This document shows positions 53,776 to 64,000 of a DNA stretch of 64,000 nt, piece after piece. Within the stretch, counting starts at the first letter, position 1. Each line of letters begins with the position of its first letter. This stretch comes from Escherichia coli (GTDB lineage: Bacteria > Pseudomonadota > Gammaproteobacteria > Enterobacterales > Enterobacteriaceae): assembly GCF_041248615.1 (NCBI RefSeq), contig NZ_CP158426.1; one strand, written 5' to 3'. The notes under the pieces are model-generated. The model ran no database searches. It had not been told where the DNA came from and saw only the letters and a program-made list of their open reading frames with translations. Made by a program: the position numbers and the translations under genes.

Positions 53776-54053
53776 TAAAAACTATATTTATGGTGTCGCA
53801 TTACCCTTCACGGCAGGCGCTTTTCAGTTCTGCCCTTGCTTCTGGCTCCATTGGTAATTTGATTCGCGATCAGCTATGCGGATGGTTTGCTGAACAGGCA
53901 TAACAACTTCTCAGTGGCTGTTTTCTGAACTACGAAAATTTCGTAGTGCTCACTTTCAAAAACGTCACGCCCTTGTACACAGGATTTTACGAAAGTCTCG
54001 TAAAACACTCTCTGATGCCAGCCAGGTGTTGTGCGCATCAATTCAGTCACATT

Positions 54054-54169
54054 GTGTTGGTTCAAAATACCGTGTTGTTGGTTCAGTGTTGGTTCAATAA
54101 AAAGAATAAAATCCTTATAAAACAATACTCTTTACAAATTGAACCAACTGAACCAACTGAACCAACACC
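54054..54169. repeat. iteron cluster B, the inverted counterpart of cluster A
   Basis: GTTGGTTCA x3 then TGAACCAAC x3; 54130-54169 (CTTTACAAATTGAACCAACTGAACCAACTGAACCAACACC) is the exact reverse complement of 45764-45803; lies 22 bp past the primase-helicase stop. Confidence 0.8.
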
Positions 54170-54191
54170 TTTTCTACGCACATGAAGAAGC

Positions 54192-56948
54192 TCATTCTTC
54201 AGATGAGTTATAATCTCCTGGCTGGTAATTGAGTACATAAACGTTTATTTGTCGTCCCTGAATACGTGGTGATTTTCTTTGGTATCCACGACCGCTGTTT
54301 GGTGGGGTTAGCATCCCGGCTTTTTTCAACACTTCAGCAAACTGTTTTGCGTTGAAACCACATGCGATCTCCTTTTCAAATGTGGCCGGGAATGTGTAGA
54401 AAATCATTGGGCTTTCGTCATGTTCTCCACGCTGACGGTATCCGGCTAAATCTTTGATGGGCAAATCTGCCGGGCTGTATGGAAATGGTGCAAAACGGCT
54501 AAGCCCATAGGCATTAAGAAATGCCTCCGTTTGTTCAATAATCTGCTGATGCTCTTTGTTACCTGTGCCGAACTCGCGCAACCATGCGTTATAGCTGTGC
54601 TGTATCGCATCACGGCATGTCTGAGCATCCCAGCCTGTTACAACCTCGCCTAACAACAATGCGGCCTCCAGAATGGCAAATCGCGCGGCTACACGGTGAA
54701 CCTGCTCACCATAATCGGATGGGATCAGGCTTCTCCATCTGCTTTCGCAGTCACGAACGGTTTTAATAGCCTGTTGCTGGTGGTCTGCCAGCCATTTAAT
54801 CCACTCACGCCCGGACGCGCCGTGGTGATGCTGGTAAGCGTCTTTCAGTGCGTCTGCGTGCTGTTTTCCGTTCTGGTAATCGTGAAAGCGTACTGCTTTA
54901 CTCAACGGAATATTCAGCAGTCGCACCAGTTGCCCGGCTTTGGTTTTTCGCCCGGAAGTAGCGATAAATGTTTCTAAATCCATTTCTCCGGTGCTGATTG
55001 CCACTGTACGCCAGCGTTTTAGATCCCGGTTTCCACCATCTTTAGCGCCTTGCAGTTTCCCTACACCGTTAAATAACGCATAGGCAGACTGTGAAACGCT
55101 GACAGGATCAGCGCCCTGACCAACTTCATCAAGCGGCATTAGTCCGTCATTGTGGGCGGCGGCCTCATTTGCCAGCCCCAGCGCGGTTCCGTACCACGTC
55201 AGCCGCAGTAAATCAGGGTTGCCGTATAAGCTGCTCGCCACGTTTGCCGTGGTGGTCTTACCTGCGCTCGACTGCTCATAGAAATGAATGCCGAACCCGT
55301 CAGCGCCCACCAGCCCAATCAATGGCGCTGCCAGTGCTGCGCCGATCCCGGTCATCATTGAATAGTTACCAAAGGCCAGACGCGCCACGTTATCACGCCA
55401 GCTTTTCGCGCTCCCTGAGACGGTATATCCGGCTGCGGCTGAGCTTCTCCCGCTGAACAGCACAGGATTTTCAGGTGTTCCGATGATTTCCCCATCAGGC
55501 ATGATGTACGCTCCGCATTGCCAGCCAGTGGCATGAGCAACACGCCACAATTCACGAGAGCCACTGCGTTGTAGCCAGTCTGCCAGTATTGCTCTGAGGC
55601 TGCTTTTGGTCGTGACATTTACCCCACCAGCTTTAAGTGTGCGCCATCCTTCACGTTCACCAATATCAGCCAGTGGAATGGCAGCGGTTGTCGGCGTTTC
55701 AGAACCAAACGACAGCCAGCGAAGAATGAGATACTGGTCTTTATCGTCTCTGCCAGTACCGATAACGCTTAACGGAGAACATAACCAGCTTTCGTTATTG
55801 ATGATTTCTCCACTCTGGCTGTCAGCTCTCGGAGATACCCAATAAATACCATCCTCGCGGCTTTCTATTCTTGGTTTCAGTGGATCGGTATCCATAACCT
55901 TAAAATCGCTTCCCTCAATGGTCTGTGGCTCCTGTTTCACGCCATTACCCTGTGGTTGGTACATTGACTTATTGAACGCTTCTGTGGCGCATTTAATGCC
56001 GTGTTTTTGGTGGTAATCATTCCAGTCTGCTTTGTGATCTGTCGGGGGTAATGCCACCCATCCAGAAACAGATAAAGCTGCTTTTTCTGCTGCTATTCTC
56101 CCCGTGTTTTGTCTTCCTTCGCTGTGGTCGTTATCCGCAGCAATGATGATTTGTGCTGAAGGAAATTTATCCCGCAGTACCTGGGCGACATATAACAGGT
56201 TCCCGGCATCAATCGCCGCCACTGTCAGCGCCTCTGGACGAATTAAATGGGCAGATAATGCCGTTGCCAGCCCTTCTGCGATTAAGATGCTCTGTGTTGT
56301 TTCTGGTGCGTTTATGGCGTGATATGCCCCCCGCTTTGCTGAACCTGTCAGGAGTCTTTTTTCACCATGTGAGGTAATAGTCTGTGCTGCTGTGACTGCG
56401 CCGGATTTATCCACCAGCGCCAGCAACAGAGATCCATCGGGCAACACGGGGAATGTAAAATCACCTACCCCTTTCGCAACCAGATAATCAGATTTGCCGT
56501 TTACAGCCTTTCTGCGCATGTCATCAAACTGACGGGAAAACGTATCCCGTCTTTGTTGTTCGTCCTTCTCTGCCCTTTTCAGGCGCTCCTGTTCGCGTCG
56601 CTGGCGCTCGGTTTCCAGTTGTTCCCGTTTCTGGCTGGTGGCTTCTGGTGTTTCCGTTGTCCGGTAATCAATACCCAGAACATCAGCGGCAAGAAGCGCC
56701 GCCTCTGTTGTGTCGCAGTTATTTACGCGTTTAATTAAATCCAGCCCATCACCAGCGCCGCACTGATTACAGATGAAGCTACCGCGCCCGTTGTCATCGA
56801 ACCGGAATCGATCTTTGCCCCCACATGCAGGGCAGGGAGCATGACGGCGCGGAGAGTCAGGGACATTTATGTTCAGGCAGCCCAGCACATGAGGCCAGTT
56901 GTTTTCAGACGCACTGATAACCTGACGGATAAGATCAATGTTTCGCAT
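54192..56948 (-). CDS. primase/helicase of the integrative element (zinc-ribbon + TOPRIM + P-loop NTPase)
   Basis: About 918 aa from ATG at 56948; CPACGGKDRF…CNQCG zinc ribbon, TOPRIM-like IIIAADNDHSEGRQ, Walker A YEQSSAGKTT; iterons directly downstream. Confidence 0.8.
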   Translation of the reverse strand: MRNIDLIRQVISASENNWPHVLGCLNINVPDSPRRHAPCPACGGKDRFRFDDNGRGSFICNQCGAGDGLDLIKRVNNCDTTEAALLAADVLGIDYRTTETPEATSQKREQLETERQRREQERLKRAEKDEQQRRDTFSRQFDDMRRKAVNGKSDYLVAKGVGDFTFPVLPDGSLLLALVDKSGAVTAAQTITSHGEKRLLTGSAKRGAYHAINAPETTQSILIAEGLATALSAHLIRPEALTVAAIDAGNLLYVAQVLRDKFPSAQIIIAADNDHSEGRQNTGRIAAEKAALSVSGWVALPPTDHKADWNDYHQKHGIKCATEAFNKSMYQPQGNGVKQEPQTIEGSDFKVMDTDPLKPRIESREDGIYWVSPRADSQSGEIINNESWLCSPLSVIGTGRDDKDQYLILRWLSFGSETPTTAAIPLADIGEREGWRTLKAGGVNVTTKSSLRAILADWLQRSGSRELWRVAHATGWQCGAYIMPDGEIIGTPENPVLFSGRSSAAAGYTVSGSAKSWRDNVARLAFGNYSMMTGIGAALAAPLIGLVGADGFGIHFYEQSSAGKTTTANVASSLYGNPDLLRLTWYGTALGLANEAAAHNDGLMPLDEVGQGADPVSVSQSAYALFNGVGKLQGAKDGGNRDLKRWRTVAISTGEMDLETFIATSGRKTKAGQLVRLLNIPLSKAVRFHDYQNGKQHADALKDAYQHHHGASGREWIKWLADHQQQAIKTVRDCESRWRSLIPSDYGEQVHRVAARFAILEAALLLGEVVTGWDAQTCRDAIQHSYNAWLREFGTGNKEHQQIIEQTEAFLNAYGLSRFAPFPYSPADLPIKDLAGYRQRGEHDESPMIFYTFPATFEKEIACGFNAKQFAEVLKKAGMLTPPNSGRGYQRKSPRIQGRQINVYVLNYQPGDYNSSEE

Positions 56949-57306
56949 CACCGTACCCCACGTGGTCTATAGCGTTTGCGATATGGCTAACCAGCATCTG
57001 CCACTTGGTTATTCCGTAATCAGTCAGCATGCCATCATTGTTTAGCCACATATCAAATTCAGCGGTTGTCGCAAGTTTCCACTTATCGCCGTGGACAGTC
57101 CTCATTGCTGGGTACATGAATGCGCAAATCAGATCACAAACATCTGACGGCTTCAGAGATGTAGTAATGGTGCGTCCCTCTGGCGTCTGAATTGCCATTT
57201 TCTCTTCACCAGTAGAATGAAGGTTATGAATCCACACAGCACCAGCAATCTTTGCCACCTGCTCTCCGATTGCGGAGCTAAGCGCCATTTCTGCATTTTC
57301 ACGCAT
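56935..57306 (-). CDS. hypothetical small protein
   Basis: 123-aa ORF overlapping the primase start and the upstream ORF end. Confidence 0.4.
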   Translation of the reverse strand: MRENAEMALSSAIGEQVAKIAGAVWIHNLHSTGEEKMAIQTPEGRTITTSLKPSDVCDLICAFMYPAMRTVHGDKWKLATTAEFDMWLNNDGMLTDYGITKWQMLVSHIANAIDHVGYGDAKH

Positions 57307-57640
57307 GAGAACCTCCCGCTACAGTTGCGCCCATGTCATTAACCATGCTTTGCCATATCTCACGCCCGACGTCAGTCAATCCGTCCTTAGTGACGCAACG
57401 CTCAAGAAGCTCGATCCCCACGGTTTCCCACTGCGGGTAGAACACTTTCATGGCTGCCAGTGTGTAGCTATCGATCAGGCTGCGAACGCCTTTTACTCCA
57501 TTGACGATTTCCACACGTACGGCCTCGCCGTCCGCATCAACCATGAAATAGTCCCCGCCGCTGGTGGAGGTAATGTGGTTATACAGTGCCGACGCATACT
57601 TATTTGCCAGCGCATTCAGTCGGAAATTTTTAGTAATCAT
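57299..57640 (-). CDS. hypothetical small protein
   Basis: 113-aa ORF in the same overlapping chain. Confidence 0.4.
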   Translation of the reverse strand: MITKNFRLNALANKYASALYNHITSTSGGDYFMVDADGEAVRVEIVNGVKGVRSLIDSYTLAAMKVFYPQWETVGIELLERCVTKDGLTDVGREIWQSMVNDMGATVAGGSHA

Positions 57641-57650
57641 GGCTCCATCC

Positions 57651-58253
57651 TCAGTGCGTCACTGGTTCCGCTGGCATGCCGTTTTCATTCAGTTCAGCTA
57701 TAAAGCTGTTGTGAAGTTCAGCAAGCGTTTCACGACCAAATGGAGTCAGTGCTCCTTGTTCCACATCCATCATGGCTCTGTAGAAAATGATGGCGCGTTC
57801 TGTGCCAGACTCGATGCCAAAACGTTCTATCATCGCGCCCTCAATGTTGTTTGCCATAGCGAGGCGCTCTGCTACTGGATACAGCGGCATGGCGACGATG
57901 CCGTTGGAATAAACAGCCACTTCGGAAGGATTGCCAGTATCATCAATGATGCTGACAGTGCCGTTTTCCTCTCTCATTTCCAGCATGAATACTGTTGCGA
58001 TCAGCCATCTCCACATAATGACGTTATGCTGTGATGTGTAATCGAAATATCCCTGGTTGCCGCCATCGGCTATAGCGAGATGTATTGACATGCCTTCATC
58101 TGGTTTATCGTCATAATCCCCGGCATCCAGACGATTTACGGCATCAATATATGAGACGGTCTCAACGCGTTCTGTCATGCCATCGTTGCTGCGGTGCATG
58201 ATGTTTACGCCGTCAGGCGTTGCTTCTGCATGGAAGGTTAAGAAATTATTCAT
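57651..58253 (-). CDS. hypothetical protein
   Basis: About 200 aa from the internal ATG (MNNFLTFHAEATPDGV…), whose start overlaps the stop of the upstream ORF; the longer 235-aa frame is probably an over-extension. Confidence 0.4.
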   Translation of the reverse strand: MNNFLTFHAEATPDGVNIMHRSNDGMTERVETVSYIDAVNRLDAGDYDDKPDEGMSIHLAIADGGNQGYFDYTSQHNVIMWRWLIATVFMLEMREENGTVSIIDDTGNPSEVAVYSNGIVAMPLYPVAERLAMANNIEGAMIERFGIESGTERAIIFYRAMMDVEQGALTPFGRETLAELHNSFIAELNENGMPAEPVTH

Positions 58254-58467
58254 GTTTCGCCTCGCCTGAATGATTCTGTAACTCATATTTGCCCAACAAT
58301 TCGTCCGCTTCCTGAATAGCTTCTGGTACGCCATTGAGCAGTGACATAACCGCGCCAATCATTAACTTGTCTCTGTTGCTGGGGCTGGCCCCTTCAAGCC
58401 AGAACCCTAAAACAGTCTGAACCTGTTCGATGCGACATTGCGCTTCAATGAGCTGGATGTTGGTCAT
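58246..58467 (-). CDS. hypothetical small protein
   Basis: 73 aa; overlaps both neighbours. Confidence 0.4.
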   Translation of the reverse strand: MTNIQLIEAQCRIEQVQTVLGFWLEGASPSNRDKLMIGAVMSLLNGVPEAIQEADELLGKYELQNHSGEAKHE

Positions 58468-58727
58468 TTCGCACTCTCCACATCGATTAAACTGATATCT
58501 ATCAGGGAGGTAACTTTTTGTAGCCAGCTATTGATTACTGTCGCCTGCTCCCCTCCCACCGAGGGAATAATCTCATTCATCACATGAACCAGACCTGTGC
58601 GCGCTCTGGTAAGCCGTTCAGTCGCGCAATCTGCGGGAGTGAATGTGTCTGGATATGGCTCTTCACTCCCCAGCAATGATTCAATTTCCAGCTCACACGG
58701 ATGACGATAAATTAAGTTGATATTCAT
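58464..58727 (-). CDS. hypothetical small protein
   Basis: 87 aa; 4-bp overlaps. Confidence 0.4.
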   Translation of the reverse strand: MNINLIYRHPCELEIESLLGSEEPYPDTFTPADCATERLTRARTGLVHVMNEIIPSVGGEQATVINSWLQKVTSLIDISLIDVESAK

Positions 58728-58918
58728 TTTTCACCCCCAAGAATTACCAGCTCTGCACGGGCATCGTTAACCAAAGATGAGCACGCTTTAATCGCATCCA
58801 CGACATCAGTAGCGTCCATTTCTTCAGCCGAAAGACTGACAGCAACCAGGACAGCCGCTGCTTGCTCGATTAATTGAAGTGCGGACGTAAGGCGAGGGGT
58901 ATTAATTGAGTTATTCAT
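58724..58918 (-). CDS. hypothetical small protein
   Basis: 64 aa; 4-bp overlaps. Confidence 0.35.
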   Translation of the reverse strand: MNNSINTPRLTSALQLIEQAAAVLVAVSLSAEEMDATDVVDAIKACSSLVNDARAELVILGGEK

Positions 58919-59126
58919 TGGTTGCCCCCGTTTTTACTGGCATTTCGCCACCTTCCAGCAGGAAATGAACGTCACGAACGGCGAGATCCAATATCGCGAG
59001 TAACGCCTTCAGTTTTTCGTCTCGTGAGGGAGAGTTGCTCACCAGAATGTCATTAATCACTTCTGTCAGTGTGATGATCTGGCTTGTGCGTTCGAGGGGG
59101 TCCATATGCACATCGTAGGTTTTAAT
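58911..59126 (-). CDS. hypothetical small protein (C-terminal part of the tracked 342-aa ORF)
   Basis: Internal ATG gives MIKTYDVHMDPLERTSQIITLTEVINDILVS…, a plausible 71-aa protein; the upstream part of the long frame looks like out-of-frame translation of a structured GC-rich region. Confidence 0.35.
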   Translation of the reverse strand: MKTYDVHMDPLERTSQIITLTEVINDILVSNSPSRDEKLKALLAILDLAVRDVHFLLEGGEMPVKTGATNE

Positions 59127-59329
59127 CATGTGCCACCTCCATGCGGATACGACCAGCAAAAAAGCAGACGTGATCGCGCACCAGAGAACGGCGAGCATCG
59201 CGTTCAGACTCGGCAGCAATATGATGAATTTTGGCGGTAATTGTCGGGCAATCGCGGCGAACTGCGGCGATAATCCAGATAAATTGCGGTTTTTGGGTAG
59301 GGGTAGTAGCCAGCATGTGGCAGCCTCCT

Positions 59330-59610
59330 TGATTGATGGTTTATAGCCACCGCCGGAGGTCCTAAGCTCGCTGGCGGTGGACTGTACAGGGTTAGGACTA
59401 CTGGCAATCAAGGAAACCAGCCTGACCGAAGTCAGCCCCATACAGCCCACCATTGATAAGGTGTGCGTGTGCGCCGATACAAAAAAAGACGCTGGCGCGT
59501 CATGTATCGCCTCGATTGCCTGCGGGGTCCTAATCCCGGCACCCGTTTTATGAGGTGCCTTATAACCATAAACCGTGTTGCCGCATAACGGCAAGCTCTT
59601 TTTTATGGAC
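59330..59610 (+). ncRNA. candidate structured RNA / immunity-type region (C4- or P4 CI-like antisense RNA?), ending in a plus-strand terminator
   Basis: GC-rich segment with hairpins (CCACCGCC…GGCGGTGG), two copies of GGTCCTAA, long-range complement CCTTGATTG/CAATCAAGG, and a hairpin plus T-run at 59577-59606; sits inside an otherwise minus-strand gene chain. Confidence 0.3.
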
Positions 59611-59932
59611 TCCGAAAACTCACTATTGGAAGAACCAGATGCACAATACATCGCGCTCATTTCGTTAACGTCACGCGCATGGACGAAGGTTTTTGTGGAG
59701 TCACTACGCGAGAAGAGAAAGCCATCTACGACCAGAAATTCTCTGGCGCAGCCGCTGACCTTCTCAACGCTAACACCATCGACCGTAATTTCTGACATGG
59801 TTAAGGCATCCGCTCCTACCACCAGCAAATGACAAACTTTGCTTGTATCTGCTGTATTAATGCCTGACTTTGCTGTCATATTGCTGGATTTTGGCGACAT
59901 ACCAGCCAGTGAAAATATCTTCTTCTGGACGG

Positions 59933-60115
59933 TTAGCATTTGTTAACCTCCGCGAACTCCTTCATGAAGCGCGCCAGCGGTTGTACGCATGGCGATTGAT
60001 ACCCGTCGCGATAAAACGTCACTCGGTTGTGAGACACGCTTTCGACAGTAACGAGTGCTCCGTGGGCATCTTTGTAGCGTTTTTGTGGTTGTGGTATTCC
60101 TGTTGGCTTAGACAT
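59933..60115 (-). CDS. small phage protein (DUF4222-like, tentative)
   Basis: 60 aa from the internal ATG: MSKPTGIPQPQKRYKDAHGALVTVESVSHNRVTFYRDGYQSPCVQPLARFMKEFAEVNKC. Confidence 0.4.
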   Translation of the reverse strand: MSKPTGIPQPQKRYKDAHGALVTVESVSHNRVTFYRDGYQSPCVQPLARFMKEFAEVNKC

Positions 60116-60941
60116 TGAGCGCCTCCAGACGCTTGGCGAGCCAGCGTTGCGACAGGTGGGTGAGTTCTCCTTTGCGCTGCTCATATTCCATGCCCATATC
60201 AATTAACGTGATATTGGTGCTTTCGAGATATGAGAGGTGCTCAAGCTGTTCTGCGTTCATATGGTCGCGAGGTTCGCCAGAATAGCCATTTATCCGCGCC
60301 CACTGCTTAGCAGTTAGCCCTCCAAGAACGATACGAGAAATCATATTGCTCTCGTTTGTGTAGTGGTGTTGCTGCGTCGTTTTCCCCTGCTCGGCACGGG
60401 CCATATTCAGCGCATCGCACATTGGCTTAAAGTTGTTTGCGGCACTGATACGGGCTTTTAGCTGGCGACGATAGCGGGCGGCGATTTCAGGCACGCTACG
60501 CTGTAATTCTTCCTCGCACTGGATGAAATAACGACGGATAGCGCGACCCTGATCATTGCGTTCGATCATTGCCAGTTCTTTCGCCATTCCGACACTTAAC
60601 AGATAGTCTTTGCCGGGTCTGCCAGACTGCTTAATCTTGCTGTAAGCCGCGCCATTCGGGCTTTTCCCCAAATTTGGGGAAATTGTTTTATGGACTGAGT
60701 AATCGTGCCCAATGGTGAAGTCATATTCAGAGATGCGATCAGTGATCCATGTAGAGAAGTCTTTTCCCACGCCCAACGCTTTGTGTAACGCTTTTGCGCT
60801 AACAATATTGGTTTCACGCCCACCGATGTGACCAGGAATAACCGGGACAATTGCGGCAAATTCATTACCGTTAATTGTGCCCAGAGAGGCGTTCAGATGA
60901 GGGGCGGCCTCAGAAATTAATCTGCTTTTTTCGATGTTCAT
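60108..60941 (-). CDS. phage antirepressor-like protein (AntA-type N-terminus, KilAC-type C-terminal region)
   Basis: 277 aa; N-terminal block …NIVSAKALHKALGVGKDFSTWITDRISEYDFTIGHDY…; central …LLSVGMAKELAMIERNDQGRAIRRYFIQCEE… Domain names from memory. Confidence 0.55.
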   Translation of the reverse strand: MNIEKSRLISEAAPHLNASLGTINGNEFAAIVPVIPGHIGGRETNIVSAKALHKALGVGKDFSTWITDRISEYDFTIGHDYSVHKTISPNLGKSPNGAAYSKIKQSGRPGKDYLLSVGMAKELAMIERNDQGRAIRRYFIQCEEELQRSVPEIAARYRRQLKARISAANNFKPMCDALNMARAEQGKTTQQHHYTNESNMISRIVLGGLTAKQWARINGYSGEPRDHMNAEQLEHLSYLESTNITLIDMGMEYEQRKGELTHLSQRWLAKRLEALNV

Positions 60942-60953
60942 TTTCAGTCTCCG

Positions 60954-61385
60954 TTAGGCGGCGTTAAACGCGTCCGGGTAGAGTTTCAGAATGTCGGCAA
61001 TTTCCTGCTGAGAAAGTCCGTTGTGATCATTTATGTTCGCAAGATGGTTAACATGAGTGATCACTTTCAGAACATCACCACGGCAGGAGAAACGGTAGCG
61101 AAGGTGTGTTCCGATACCATCAGGATTCTTTTCGTCGATACGCTCCAGAGTGATTCCAAGCTGGCGTTCTAACTCTGTTGCATAGTTACGACCAGAAGAC
61201 AGACGGCAGTAGCGAAGAATGTCATTTTCTGTCCATCCCTCTATACCAGTACGCAGCATATAGACTCGGGCACGATGCTTTTTCGGTGTGCGCTTTGGTG
61301 CTTGAAGGGATTTTGTAAGGGGCGTAATATCAGATACGCGAATATCTGAATTAGCCGCCTGTAATGGGCGGTTTTTCTTTTCCAT
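60954..61385 (-). CDS. hypothetical protein
   Basis: 143 aa, immediately upstream of the antirepressor-like gene. Confidence 0.4.
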   Translation of the reverse strand: MEKKNRPLQAANSDIRVSDITPLTKSLQAPKRTPKKHRARVYMLRTGIEGWTENDILRYCRLSSGRNYATELERQLGITLERIDEKNPDGIGTHLRYRFSCRGDVLKVITHVNHLANINDHNGLSQQEIADILKLYPDAFNAA

Positions 61386-61603
61386 CAGGCCACCTTCCCG
61401 CGGCGTTCTGCCAGCCAGTTATTAATTTCCACCGCATCAAACGCAGTCACGTTATCTGTTAGCTTCACTGGGCGTGGAAGAGTGCCATTTTTAACCCATC
61501 TATCAATAGTAGGCAGTGAAACACCTAGCAATTCCGGCATGCGAAAGCGACGGATGTATCCAGTTGTTGGGATAGCTGATGATGCTGGCTTGTGTGCTGT
61601 CAT
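61385..61603 (-). CDS. AlpA-family (HTH_17) regulator/excisionase-like protein
   Basis: 72 aa, ATG start; …GYIRRFRMPELLGVSLPTIDRWVKNGTLPRPVKLTDNVTAFDAVEINNWLAERR fits the AlpA pattern. Confidence 0.6.
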   Translation of the reverse strand: MTAHKPASSAIPTTGYIRRFRMPELLGVSLPTIDRWVKNGTLPRPVKLTDNVTAFDAVEINNWLAERRGKVA

Positions 61604-61639
61604 ATCTCTAGTAACCTCTCTGATAGCTCATGAAGTTAC

Positions 61640-61940
61640 TTAAAGTTTAGTGGTTGCCCATACAGTATTTCTATTAAGACTAGAATCTATTGAAAGAAAT
61701 TATAAATCTATTGAAAAAATACCGATCCACTGAAAGATTGCAAATGCAGGTGGGATAATTATTTTCTTTATTTTCAATTAGTTACCAGTTTAAAAAATCA
61801 TTGTTTTATCAAAGAGTTATATCTTTCATCGTCATTCATCATGTTTTTACATTTCTTTTTATCTTTTATTATTCAATTGGTTGAGTCGGTTTATAATGGC
61901 TCATGATGGCTTAAAATGGCTAATGATAGCTGGCGTATCT
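61640..61940. promoter_or_regulatory. AT-rich control region with short direct repeats upstream of the AlpA-like gene
   Basis: Repeats of TCTATTGAAA (x2, plus CCACTGAAAG) near 61680-61740 and AATGGCT (x3) near 61895-61935. Confidence 0.35.
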
Positions 61941-62074
61941 TTTAGAGATGGGGTGATTACAGATGAACTAAGCCGAACAGATATAGCAATGGCTAGGCAT
62001 AGAATTATCTATGCTGGTGGAGATGGGTAAACAGGTAATGCCCCGCCATTGCTTTGGAGGGGCGTGAAAAGTGA

Positions 62075-62725
62075 TTAGTCGAGATCGTGGACAGCTAATA
62101 AAGCCCGTGAGATTTTTTCTAGGAATGTGGCTTTTGCTATTCCTTTATGGGATATCCCTTCATCCTTGATTAAGGTTTCTATGTCACGGTATATAGCTGT
62201 GCGATTAGGTTTCCCATTTTGGATGTAGGAAGATGAGCCTGATTTTTTTATCAGCAGATGTACTATCAACCCCATCATTTTCATTGTCCCGTTTTCCTCA
62301 TCCTGCTTTCTATGCTGCCCACGTCCGCTGCGGTTGGTTTCTTTGATGTAGTTTACTAACTGGAGTCCTCCAAGGTTTCGGGCTTTTTCTTCCCAGCCCT
62401 TGGTGCCACGCAAATCATCAATCGCTTCTGATATTTTCTGAACAATTATTTCTGGTGTATTTGTGTCAATAAATGGGTAAGAAGCTAAGAAAATATCAAG
62501 GGCATGGCAAGGCTCGTCTTTACTAGTTTTTTCACCTCTGTACACCTTGATAGCTCTGGCAAGATGAGTTCTGACAAAATCGACATATTCGAAATTTTCC
62601 TCAGGCACATCGCTAATGCGCATAGATGGGTTTAGGCCAGCCAAGGCCACAGCCATTTCATGAGGGGTAATCGATACAGATGAACAAAGCCGTTCGATTG
62701 GCGATTTTCTCAAGATGTTGTTCAC
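62075..62725 (-). CDS. hypothetical cargo protein directly downstream of the integrase
   Basis: 216-aa ORF whose GTG start overlaps the integrase stop (GTGA); no recognisable domain. Confidence 0.4.
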   Translation of the reverse strand: MNNILRKSPIERLCSSVSITPHEMAVALAGLNPSMRISDVPEENFEYVDFVRTHLARAIKVYRGEKTSKDEPCHALDIFLASYPFIDTNTPEIIVQKISEAIDDLRGTKGWEEKARNLGGLQLVNYIKETNRSGRGQHRKQDEENGTMKMMGLIVHLLIKKSGSSSYIQNGKPNRTAIYRDIETLIKDEGISHKGIAKATFLEKISRALLAVHDLD

Positions 62726-63990
62726 ATTTGCCTCCGGGCTTTATCGAATGGCGTTACGTTGTAGTCTTTCCCGCTTTCCAGTGCCACCAGCAGATCAGCC
62801 CACTGTGCCAGCGCAGCTTTACGCTCATCAAAATACTGATGGCGGTTATAAATCCCCTCCACACCCTTAATGCGATGATTGAGGCATCGTTCCGCTACGA
62901 CAGGATCAACACCCAATGCTGCTAAATGAGTACGTGCGGTACGCCGGAAGTCGTGAATCGTGAAATTAGGCACATCCGGCATTTCGGCGCGAACCTTAGC
63001 CAGTGCTACGGGTAAAGTGCTTTCCTGAATATGTGGGATCATTCTGTTTTGCATCTTCCTGGCTGGAAGCACCCATGCGCTATTACATGAAAAGGTGTGT
63101 AGCTCTCTCAACCATTCAACGGCTGGGGAAGGTAGAGGTATATCAATAGGGTCTCCGTTTTTGCTGCGTTCTTCCGGCAAATGCCATACCGCACCATCTA
63201 AATCAAACTCTTCCCATCGTGCGGCGCATAACTCCATCTTACGAACGCATAGTGCCAGCAATAGCTTAAATGTCAGTTCGTTCTGGCGGCTGAATCCTTT
63301 TGCGGTGCGCATAGCTTCGAATAGCCTGATAAGCTCATCGCGAGTTAGCCAACGGTCGCGGGAAACCTCTTTACCACCAGCATCAGATACTTCAAACGCT
63401 GAACAAGGGTTTATCTCCAGAGCGTGGCGTTTTATCCCATAGTCAAAGATACGGCGTGTCCAGCGTAATACATCTGTTGCTATCGTTGGTGCTCCTCGGT
63501 CAACGATACCTTTCAACATGTCGTCAATGTGGCGTGGCTTAACGTCCTCCACCTTCATATGCCCAATGCAGGGGTTAATATCCTTATCAATTCTCCGGCG
63601 AAGGATATCGGGATGTTTCCATCTTGGAAGTATCTGGCGCTCGAAGTATTCGGCGGCCAGATCTGAAACGCGCATGGCGTTTTTCTCAGCCTCCATTTTT
63701 GCCAGTGCTTCAGCTTTTCGTTCCTGTTTCTCTGCTGCTACGTCATAGCCAAGAGCAACTCTGGCTGACAGCTCTTTTGCTGTTTCTCTGGCTTTTGATA
63801 GTGACAGTTCGGAGTAAGAGCCTATAACCATAGCCCGCTGCTTTCCTGCGAGCTTATAGCGGAATCGCCAGAACGGGACTGTGTAGTTTTTTGGGTAGCA
63901 AATATAAAGGCCGTTGCCGTCTGCCTTGCCATCAAATCTGTCTCCCGCCTTTATCCATGCGCGGATCTGCATATCTGTGAGTTTTGGCAT
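62722..63990 (-). CDS. P4-type tyrosine integrase of the right-hand integrative element
   Basis: 422 aa, ATG at 63990; N-terminal arm-binding-like region (…GNGLYICYPKNYTVPFWRFRYKLAGKQRAMVIGSY…SLSKARE…); catalytic-region motifs incl. …HDFRRTARTHL… and …VAERCLNHRIKGVEGIYNRHQY…. Confidence 0.85.
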   Translation of the reverse strand: MPKLTDMQIRAWIKAGDRFDGKADGNGLYICYPKNYTVPFWRFRYKLAGKQRAMVIGSYSELSLSKARETAKELSARVALGYDVAAEKQERKAEALAKMEAEKNAMRVSDLAAEYFERQILPRWKHPDILRRRIDKDINPCIGHMKVEDVKPRHIDDMLKGIVDRGAPTIATDVLRWTRRIFDYGIKRHALEINPCSAFEVSDAGGKEVSRDRWLTRDELIRLFEAMRTAKGFSRQNELTFKLLLALCVRKMELCAARWEEFDLDGAVWHLPEERSKNGDPIDIPLPSPAVEWLRELHTFSCNSAWVLPARKMQNRMIPHIQESTLPVALAKVRAEMPDVPNFTIHDFRRTARTHLAALGVDPVVAERCLNHRIKGVEGIYNRHQYFDERKAALAQWADLLVALESGKDYNVTPFDKARRQM

Positions 63991-64000
63991 TGCGAATACC

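Follow-up and report, generated by a model that had tools for sequence, protein, structure and literature searches.

The segment encodes an IsrK-type and a C4-type RNA

We analysed positions 59330-59610 of a 64,000-nucleotide stretch of Escherichia coli DNA (contig NZ_CP158426.1, assembly GCF_041248615.1; hereafter the window), a segment that an earlier note had singled out as GC-rich, structured DNA that may encode an antisense immunity RNA of the phage P4 CI or P1/P7 C4 kind. As checks, the note had proposed a covariance-model scan with the Rfam C4 and isrK families and RNA folding. Our Rfam scan covered positions 54000-64000 and matched both families over their full length, well above the curated gathering scores (45 for RF01695 and 50 for RF01394), which bears out the proposed RNA type and identifies an IsrK RNA followed, after a 24-nt spacer, by a C4 RNA. 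With the Rfam models, a second copy of C4 or isrK was not found within the 64-kb window. The earlier note gave no strand; all RNA features lie on the minus strand, and their anatomy, read on the RNA strand, is as follows:

59594-59589 and 59570-59565, minus strand: candidate sigma-70 promoter recognized by eye, with -35 TTGCCG, an 18-nt spacer and -10 TATGGT
59558 to 59482, minus strand: IsrK / SeqA-type RNA, 77 nt (RF01394, 63 bits against a gathering score of 50, E 6e-12, model positions 1-77 of 77)
59558-59539, minus strand: IsrK hairpin 1
59538-59523, minus strand: IsrK hairpin 2, with box a1, UUAGGAC, in its loop (59533-59527)
59520-59510, minus strand: IsrK box b1, GGCAAUCGAGG
59501-59481, minus strand: IsrK intrinsic terminator from the terminator scan (stem 59501-59488, U7 at 59487-59481)
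59457 to 59370, minus strand: C4 / CI-type antisense RNA, 88 nt (RF01695, 80.2 bits against a gathering score of 45, E 6.6e-15, model positions 1-87 of 87)
59414-59405, minus strand: C4 segment b', UCCUUGAUUG, in the loop of hairpin 2
59398-59392, minus strand: C4 segment a', GUCCUAA, at the 3' joint
59375-59372, minus strand: GCCA after the C4 closing stem, resembling a tRNA 3' end

The C4 segment folds into a Y shape in which a 16-bp closing stem surrounds two hairpins, and this minimum free energy (MFE) structure is the family consensus. At -42.4 kcal/mol it is far more stable than expected from its composition (z = -4.4; 0/200 shuffles as good), as is the 311-nt region spanning the cassette (z = -4.5). 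The stable hairpins described in the earlier note are thus found in C4 and in the region as a whole, while IsrK alone does not stand out (z = -1.0). The GCCA that follows the C4 stem is consistent with an RNase P-cut RNA having tRNA-like ends. IsrK and the C4 loops form a predicted duplex of -36.6 kcal/mol, compared to -18.9 +/- 3.1 for shuffled sequences (z = -5.6; 0/500 shuffles as good). In the read-through transcript, two near-isoenergetic folds are predicted: one of -105.4 kcal/mol, in which IsrK is bound in cis to the C4 loops through 24 base pairs, and one of -102.5 kcal/mol, in which IsrK is free and C4 is Y-shaped.

The simpler sequence features reported for the segment mostly reappear in this layout. 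Its GC content is 53.4% compared to 47.2% island-wide, so the enrichment is real but modest, with 9% of the island's 281-nt windows equally high. The two copies of GGTCCTAA that had been noticed lie on the plus strand at 59358-59365 and 59526-59533, are the sole plus-strand occurrences in the whole window, and correspond to box a1 and a second box, a2, seen from the opposite strand. A -35/-10 pair recurs upstream of the a1 hairpin, always equally far from it, in about 70 distinct cassettes, that of P4 among them, at the position of P4 P_LE / P_isrK (in P4, the place expected for P_LE). From this promoter, transcription is predicted to start near 59558.

C4 is complementary to the leader of an icd-like gene

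Downstream of C4, we identified a second pair of boxes in the leader of the next gene, which heads an operon ending in a primase-helicase:

59365-59359, minus strand: box a2, UUAGGAC, complement of a', in the loop of an alternative hairpin (59380-59373 / 59354-59347)
59335-59326, minus strand: box b2, CAAUCAAGGA, overlapping the Shine-Dalgarno (SD) sequence AAGGAGG (59330-59324) of the icd-like gene
59122-59316, minus strand: Icd/Kil-like gene, 64 aa, ATG at 59316 (NCBIfam NF033153, 71.7 bits against a cut-off of 25)
54192-56951, minus strand: TOPRIM/DUF927 primase-helicase, 919 aa, at the end of the icd-headed operon

Complementarity between the C4 loops and these boxes is complete. Both a1 and a2 pair with a' at 7/7 positions (target boxes UUAGGAC(C)), b2 pairs with b' at 10/10, and b1 pairs with b' at 11/11, one pair being G-U. 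When G-U pairs are allowed, the b'-b2 duplex extends to 13 bp at -18.5 kcal/mol. The two C4 loops together bind the leader with -29.9 kcal/mol, compared to -20.8 +/- 3.1 for shuffled targets, of which 4/500 were as good. The exact b2 site is single-copy on the minus strand of the window. Further C4 targets elsewhere in the window were not found, and matches with one mismatch occurred at chance level.

The icd-like gene is the first gene downstream of C4 and is the predicted direct target of repression; because b2 overlaps its SD sequence, pairing with b' would block its translation. In a direct comparison, the Icd-like protein is 44% identical to P4 Kil (E 4e-11), while a tblastn search with the 64-aa protein against the phage collection, a short query against a large database, returned none at E <= 1e-3. 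The primase-helicase, which over its N-terminal 359 aa shares 33% identity with P4 alpha (E 2e-41), is presumably the final output of the switch.

Loops and target boxes covary among relatives

We assembled relatives by an IMG/VR pattern scan, which yielded 119 loci; with P4, one Stx2 phage and two E. coli islands added, the set comprised 86 unique cassettes. Two pattern matches (L011 and L012) were chance hits and were excluded from the alignment. The cassettes carry 26 distinct a' and 36 distinct b' segments in 49 a'/b' combinations on a conserved scaffold. We then scored perfect complements of at least 7 nt between loops and boxes, in each locus's own flanks and in the flanks of different-type loci. 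Complements were found in own flanks at 92% for a1 (8.5% in different-type loci), 86% for a2 (3.5%), 71% for b1 (8.8%) and 76% for b2 (1.6%).

A covariation alignment of 59 distinct C4-plus-leader sequences, including P4, was evaluated against a structure made up of the three C4 helices, a'-a2 and b'-b2. This structure was 96.2% paired compared to 34-48% in controls with slid partners, and 30/43 pairs had changed on both sides; 0/500 shuffles reached the observed values. The C4 stems were 98-100% paired, with 15/27 stem pairs altered on both sides. The intermolecular-type helices behaved similarly: a'-a2 was 92.5% paired with 6/7 pairs covarying, and b'-b2 was 88% paired with 9/9 pairs covarying. 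The alternative hairpin, which uses the 3' strand of the C4 stem and holds a2 in its loop, was 91.5% paired with 4/8 pairs covarying.

The overlapping 'ash' frame is a translated RNA cassette

The earlier note had also pointed to a long open reading frame (ORF) across the segment, which is present:

58911-59939, minus strand: open frame of 342 codons, annotated by PGAP as 'ash family protein', eta-like, spanning IsrK, C4 and the leader

The note had called its translation S/P/L/A-rich and of low complexity. This is not striking, with 40% S+P+L+A in the middle part compared to 37% in the whole ORF. Pfam PF10554 (Phage_ASH) matches aa 124-219 of the ORF, equivalent to nt 59570-59283 (E 5e-14), which is exactly IsrK, C4 and the leader. 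In P4, the PF10554 match falls in the eta ORF at nt 8704-8330 (minus strand of NC_001609, our L004) and corresponds to seqA, cI and the start of kil, whereas P4 epsilon is PF25738 and not PF10554. We conclude that 'Ash family protein' and PF10554 are the translated IsrK-C4 cassette. PF10554 has served as an epsilon marker in a census of P4-like satellites (PMC8628076), and a paper on Stx phages called the region a domain of unknown function (PMC8951638).

Other annotations follow the same outline. Several PHROG families labelled 'transcriptional repressor/regulator' are also coextensive with the IsrK, C4 and leader cassette. The P4 RefSeq record NC_001609 carries, at 8168-8584 on the minus strand over CI RNA and kil, a historical coding sequence (CDS) 'cI gene product (AA 1-137)', labelled 'transcriptional repressor'; the record annotates no RNA gene, eta or kil. 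This historical P4 cI CDS is likely the source of the misleading protein-family labels.

We asked how well the frame itself is kept. It is open through C4 in 81/86 cassettes, compared to 24 and 19 for the other two sense frames. In the hypervariable segments the ash frame has 0/125, 0/48, 0/235 and 0/235 stop codons, whereas stops in the other two frames total 70, with 0 to 25 in each segment. In a test that shuffled sequence within the loops, the openness of the ash frame gave P = 0.018 for the b' loop and 0.14 for a'. The conservation of the frame is not accidental, and we read it as selection for an uninterrupted ribosome path from upstream rather than for a folded Ash protein. The ORF that the note took for non-coding structured DNA is thus more than noise, since its frame stays open in relatives; its content, with variation that follows base pairing, behaves like RNA and not like protein. 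The earlier note had further held that a conserved protein across the segment in related elements would refute the RNA. Formally there is such an open frame, yet it is no argument against the RNAs because in both P4 and Gifsy-1 a translated frame overlaps the RNA genes.

The relation of the frame to icd varies. An in-frame ash/icd layout is found in 49/58 scorable relatives. In 7/8 members of the window's family there is a -1 displacement between the ash frame and icd (CAC-ATG-CTG; CATC-ATG in P4): ash stays open across the whole of icd, out of phase with it, and fuses to the following gene (72 aa, ATG at 59129), for a length of 342-355 codons; the remaining member, L050, has the canonical in-frame arrangement and 283 codons. 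PGAP marks the ash ORF as a broken pseudogene in SX45 and in the E. coli island EcCIMP1. Variable sites in the N-terminal 115 aa number 13/15/17 by codon position, with no third-position bias, in an analysis that for the window's family is too weak to split coding from non-coding sequence even for real genes. In P4, the sequence shows an eta ORF of 197-199 aa with an MMM start that ends in the 65-aa Kil, which confirms the eta/kil layout. Translation of eta reportedly prevents termination of P_LL transcripts (Forti et al. 1999).

The cassette lies in an EcCIMP1-like island

The host element occupies about 45.4-64.1 kb of the window, between dinD and yicC. Its gene content comprises int, AlpA-like, Ant-family, DUF4222, primase, DUF2824, P22-type DNA-ejection/injection, ImmA/IrrE and PerC-family genes. 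Around the cassette, all on the minus strand, lie the integrase, an AlpA-like helix-turn-helix protein, a 143-aa protein, the Ant-family gene, DUF4222, the long ORF, the small ORFs and the primase. A 12-nt repeat, ATTATGTACACC, at about 45080 and just past the window end was the only possible attachment site and is too short to set the island ends. Judged from its sequence, the element is an EcCIMP1-like phage-inducible chromosomal island (PICI).

The P22-like phage Kapi1 mobilises EcCIMP1, a PICI found in E. coli (PMC11773190). EcCIMP1 has the same gene order from integrase to PerC, shares several proteins that are identical by WP accession, and carries an isrK-C4 cassette at the same place (81.1 and 69 bits), with an a/b box specificity that differs from the window's. 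The two also differ in their integrases and their attachment: EcCIMP1 sits at a tRNA-Thr gene next to proA in MP1, whereas the window island lies between dinD and yicC. In the EcCIMP1 paper the locus is treated as an 'Ash family protein' and the small RNA is unmentioned (PMC11773190).

A 1.3-kb region around the segment was matched in 996/5,426 complete E. coli genomes. The window C4 shares 96.6% identity with its counterpart in 27 Stx2-type phage records, and 'C4 antisense RNA' and 'isrK' are already annotated in some of them. Compared with Stx2 phage F039 (L002), positions 59557-59295 on the minus strand are about 90% identical, with the same a boxes and the same b2. The match to the Stx2 phage starts at IsrK +1 and stops about 7 codons inside the first gene. 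Neither the promoters nor the proteins encoded downstream are related, so the transcribed cassette moves as a module. RNA-level cross-reactivity between the island and Stx2-converting phages is possible.

Two further features flank the cassette on its upstream side:

59578-59604, plus strand: terminator-like hairpin TTGCCGCATAACGGCAA with a T-run (stem 59578-59594), from the terminator scan
60108-60941, minus strand: AntA/AntB antirepressor-family gene (annotation), upstream in the direction of transcription

A terminator had been noticed in the segment, and the scan in fact finds two terminator-like sites, one per strand. The plus-strand hairpin overlaps the -35 element of the cassette promoter and is kept in the island family, including EcCIMP1; antisense transcription into the upstream operon could be stopped there. 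The antirepressor-like gene had been placed directly upstream of the segment. It is upstream, with the DUF4222 gene and the 5' part of the long ORF intervening. The suggested RNA control of this gene is not borne out: it is not the target because it lies upstream of the RNA promoter, with the target boxes downstream and none near it.

Elsewhere in the window we recorded a strong Rfam match to the Hfq-binding RNA isrC at 9050-9172 on the plus strand (150.2 bits compared to a gathering score of 39), unrelated to the cassette, and a tRNA-Sec gene (selC) at 25487-25581 on the minus strand. selC is a classic integration hotspot for pathogenicity islands.

Comparison with P4, P1/P7 and Gifsy-1

The closest parallel is P4, whose genetically defined cI and seqA regions match the same two Rfam models (74.9 and 60.8 bits). 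Both loci have the same order of promoter, a1/b1 RNA with the same terminator hairpin, C4-type RNA, a2, and b2 over the SD sequence, followed by a 64-65-aa Kil/Icd protein, small ORFs and a related primase, and in both an open frame matched by PF10554 covers the RNA genes. The two loci also differ. The boxes are a = GUGAGAA and b = UUCACAGGA in P4 but a = UUAGGAC and b = CAAUCAAGGA in the window, so that different immunity specificities are predicted. The IsrK-C4 spacer is 24 nt in the window and 107 nt in P4. P4 eta is in frame with kil, whereas the window frame is shifted and continues into the next gene. P4 sid, delta and psu are not annotated in the window island, which has P22-type ejection-protein genes instead.

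Phages P1 and P7 offer a second parallel. Their immI locus is reportedly organized as c4-icd-ant, with a' and b' acting against a2 and b2 and with b2 at the icd ribosome-binding site (Citron & Schuster 1990; Heinrich et al. 1995). The RNA family is named after P1 C4, and in the window an Icd-like protein is encoded directly downstream. Unlike in P1/P7, there is no ant downstream of icd; the Ant-family gene lies upstream, beyond the reach of the mapped boxes. The target boxes are at the ribosome-binding site of the head gene of a replication operon, and the layout is that of P4 rather than that of P1 c4-icd-ant.

The third parallel is isrK-orf45-anrP of Salmonella Gifsy-1 (Hershko-Shalev et al. 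2016, PMC4825925), in which IsrK has its own promoter and a leaky terminator. IsrK is a structural homologue of P4 SeqA RNA and is followed by STnc1160, a stable RNA that arises by processing (PMC4825925). At the position of C4, Gifsy-1 has a structured, translated region (STnc1160/orf45) to which IsrK pairs in cis and in trans, and its experimentally determined alternative structures A and B (PMC4825925) are mirrored by the two predicted folds of the window. What lies downstream in Gifsy-1 is anrP, an antirepressor gene coupled to orf45, and the switch is described as activating, with AntQ toxicity as the result (PMC4825925). The window differs in having icd-like and replication genes downstream and an antirepressor-family gene upstream.

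A model for the cassette and its alternatives

We consider it highly probable that the segment is an RNA immunity cassette of the P4 cI / P1 c4 type that silences the replication operon of a phage-inducible island. This model builds on the family membership, structure, loop-target complementarity and covariation, conserved open frame and synteny described above, and takes RNA processing, the translational block, Rho-dependent termination and bypass by translation from its homologues. A constitutive promoter (about 59594-59565) would start a transcript whose first 77 nt form IsrK, ended at the intrinsic terminator. C4 would be carried on the read-through transcripts and presumably excised by RNase P and 3' trimming, like P4 CI and P1 C4. 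Its a' and b' segments would then pair with leader boxes a2 and b2, and pairing at b2 would cover the icd SD sequence, blocking translation of the first gene of the replication operon. The untranslated transcript would end prematurely, as in P4, so that neither the small ORFs nor the primase-helicase would be expressed and the island would stay quiescent. IsrK boxes a1 and b1 may pair with the C4 loops in cis or in trans, making IsrK a competitor or anti-antisense RNA in a bistable switch. Transcripts from the upstream AlpA-antirepressor operon would be translated through the cassette in the ash/eta frame and thereby be insensitive to immunity, as reported for P4 eta.

Several observations weigh against this immunity model. 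The candidate promoter matches the consensus at only 4/6 + 4/6 positions and was not called by a simple promoter scan. An efficient-looking terminator separates IsrK from C4, so that C4 output depends on read-through, and IsrK taken alone is not unusually stable. In the window, the icd ATG is in frame +2 relative to the ash ORF, so the in-frame eta-kil layout is absent; with icd out of the ash frame, unlike in P4, bypass may proceed in another way. In Gifsy-1, the net outcome documented for IsrK is activation and not immunity (PMC4825925).

This last point leads to an alternative that we regard as possible but doubtful, in which the locus is a positive switch of the Gifsy-1 IsrK type. Here the read-through fold would be inactive through cis IsrK-C4 pairing, C4 would be an mRNA structure, and free short IsrK would open the fold in trans to allow translation of a C4-overlapping frame (the orf45 equivalent, AUGs at 59453 and 59441) and of coupled downstream genes. 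The spacing fits, with in-frame AUGs 106 and 118 nt from the predicted IsrK start compared to 107 and 120 for the orf45 AUGs (PMC4825925), and the read-through MFE structure holds the 24 cis base pairs that this switch would use. In Gifsy-1, orf45 translation has been demonstrated with an SPA tag, and the mutation-proven G28/G31:C162/C159 pairs correspond to a1:a' (PMC4825925). However, AUG 59453 has no visible SD sequence before it, and the gene context, icd/kil and then primase, is that of P4 and not orf45-anrP. That a2 and b2 covary strongly with the loops, and that b2 sits over the icd SD sequence, is what a repressor-target model predicts. The positive-switch and repressor models are partly compatible and not exclusive.

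That the locus is purely protein-coding, with a functional Ash domain and incidental RNA-model matches, appears extremely improbable. The PGAP call of a 342-aa protein, the Pfam E-value and a frame that stays open in nearly all relatives, stop-free even where the sequence is variable, are what one would cite for it. Yet the domain match coincides with IsrK, C4 and the leader in both the window and P4, variation obeys base pairing, and the variable 'residues' are the a and b boxes, covarying with distant complementary boxes. The pseudogene calls in SX45 and EcCIMP1, the changing frame relation to icd and the lack of third-position bias in the N-terminal part likewise speak against it, and in Gifsy-1 orf45 the nucleotides are conserved and the amino acids variable even though the frame is translated (PMC4825925). 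We also judge it improbable, if less so, that the cassette is an inactive relic in a decaying island with no present regulatory role. The displaced ash/eta frame speaks for a relic, as does an island annotation with no recognisable capsid or terminase genes. Against this, both RNAs match their models end to end, the a'/a2 (7/7) and b'/b2 (10/10) complementarities, the icd ORF and the terminator are intact, and the related EcCIMP1, whose layout is the same, undergoes excision and mobilisation through a helper phage (PMC11773190).

A broader extension of the immunity model, which we put forward as speculation and think rather unlikely as a whole, is that the cassette is the master lysogeny switch of EcCIMP1-type PICIs, whose described control has so far been limited to AlpA, with AlpA-driven transcripts escaping it because they are translated through in the ash frame, and with RNA cross-talk with Stx2 phages. 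If this were true, the two might act on each other, IsrK from the phage by derepressing the island or C4 from the island by repressing the phage operon, providing RNA-based sensing of, or interference with, a helper phage. A megablast of the EcCIMP1 C4 against the phage collection, made to see whether its helper or any other phage has a C4 of that specificity, gave no match, so at this sensitivity helper sensing through matching RNAs is unsupported for that pair.

Significance

Taken by itself, the window locus is an ordinary one. Its two RNAs fall into curated Rfam families, and some Stx-phage records already label copies nearly identical to them. Its interest lies in what it says about the families around it. 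Recognizing PF10554 as a translated RNA cassette bears on its use as an epsilon marker (PMC8628076) and on its description in Stx phages as a domain without known function (PMC8951638). A ready catalogue of predicted immunity specificities is available in the 26 a-type and 36 b-type box variants, which recombine as modules while the scaffold stays conserved. EcCIMP1-type PICIs, so far described only through their proteins (AlpA, antirepressor, 'Ash' and primase), carry a P4-type RNA immunity switch before the replication module, which offers a concrete, testable hypothesis on how these islands are kept quiescent.

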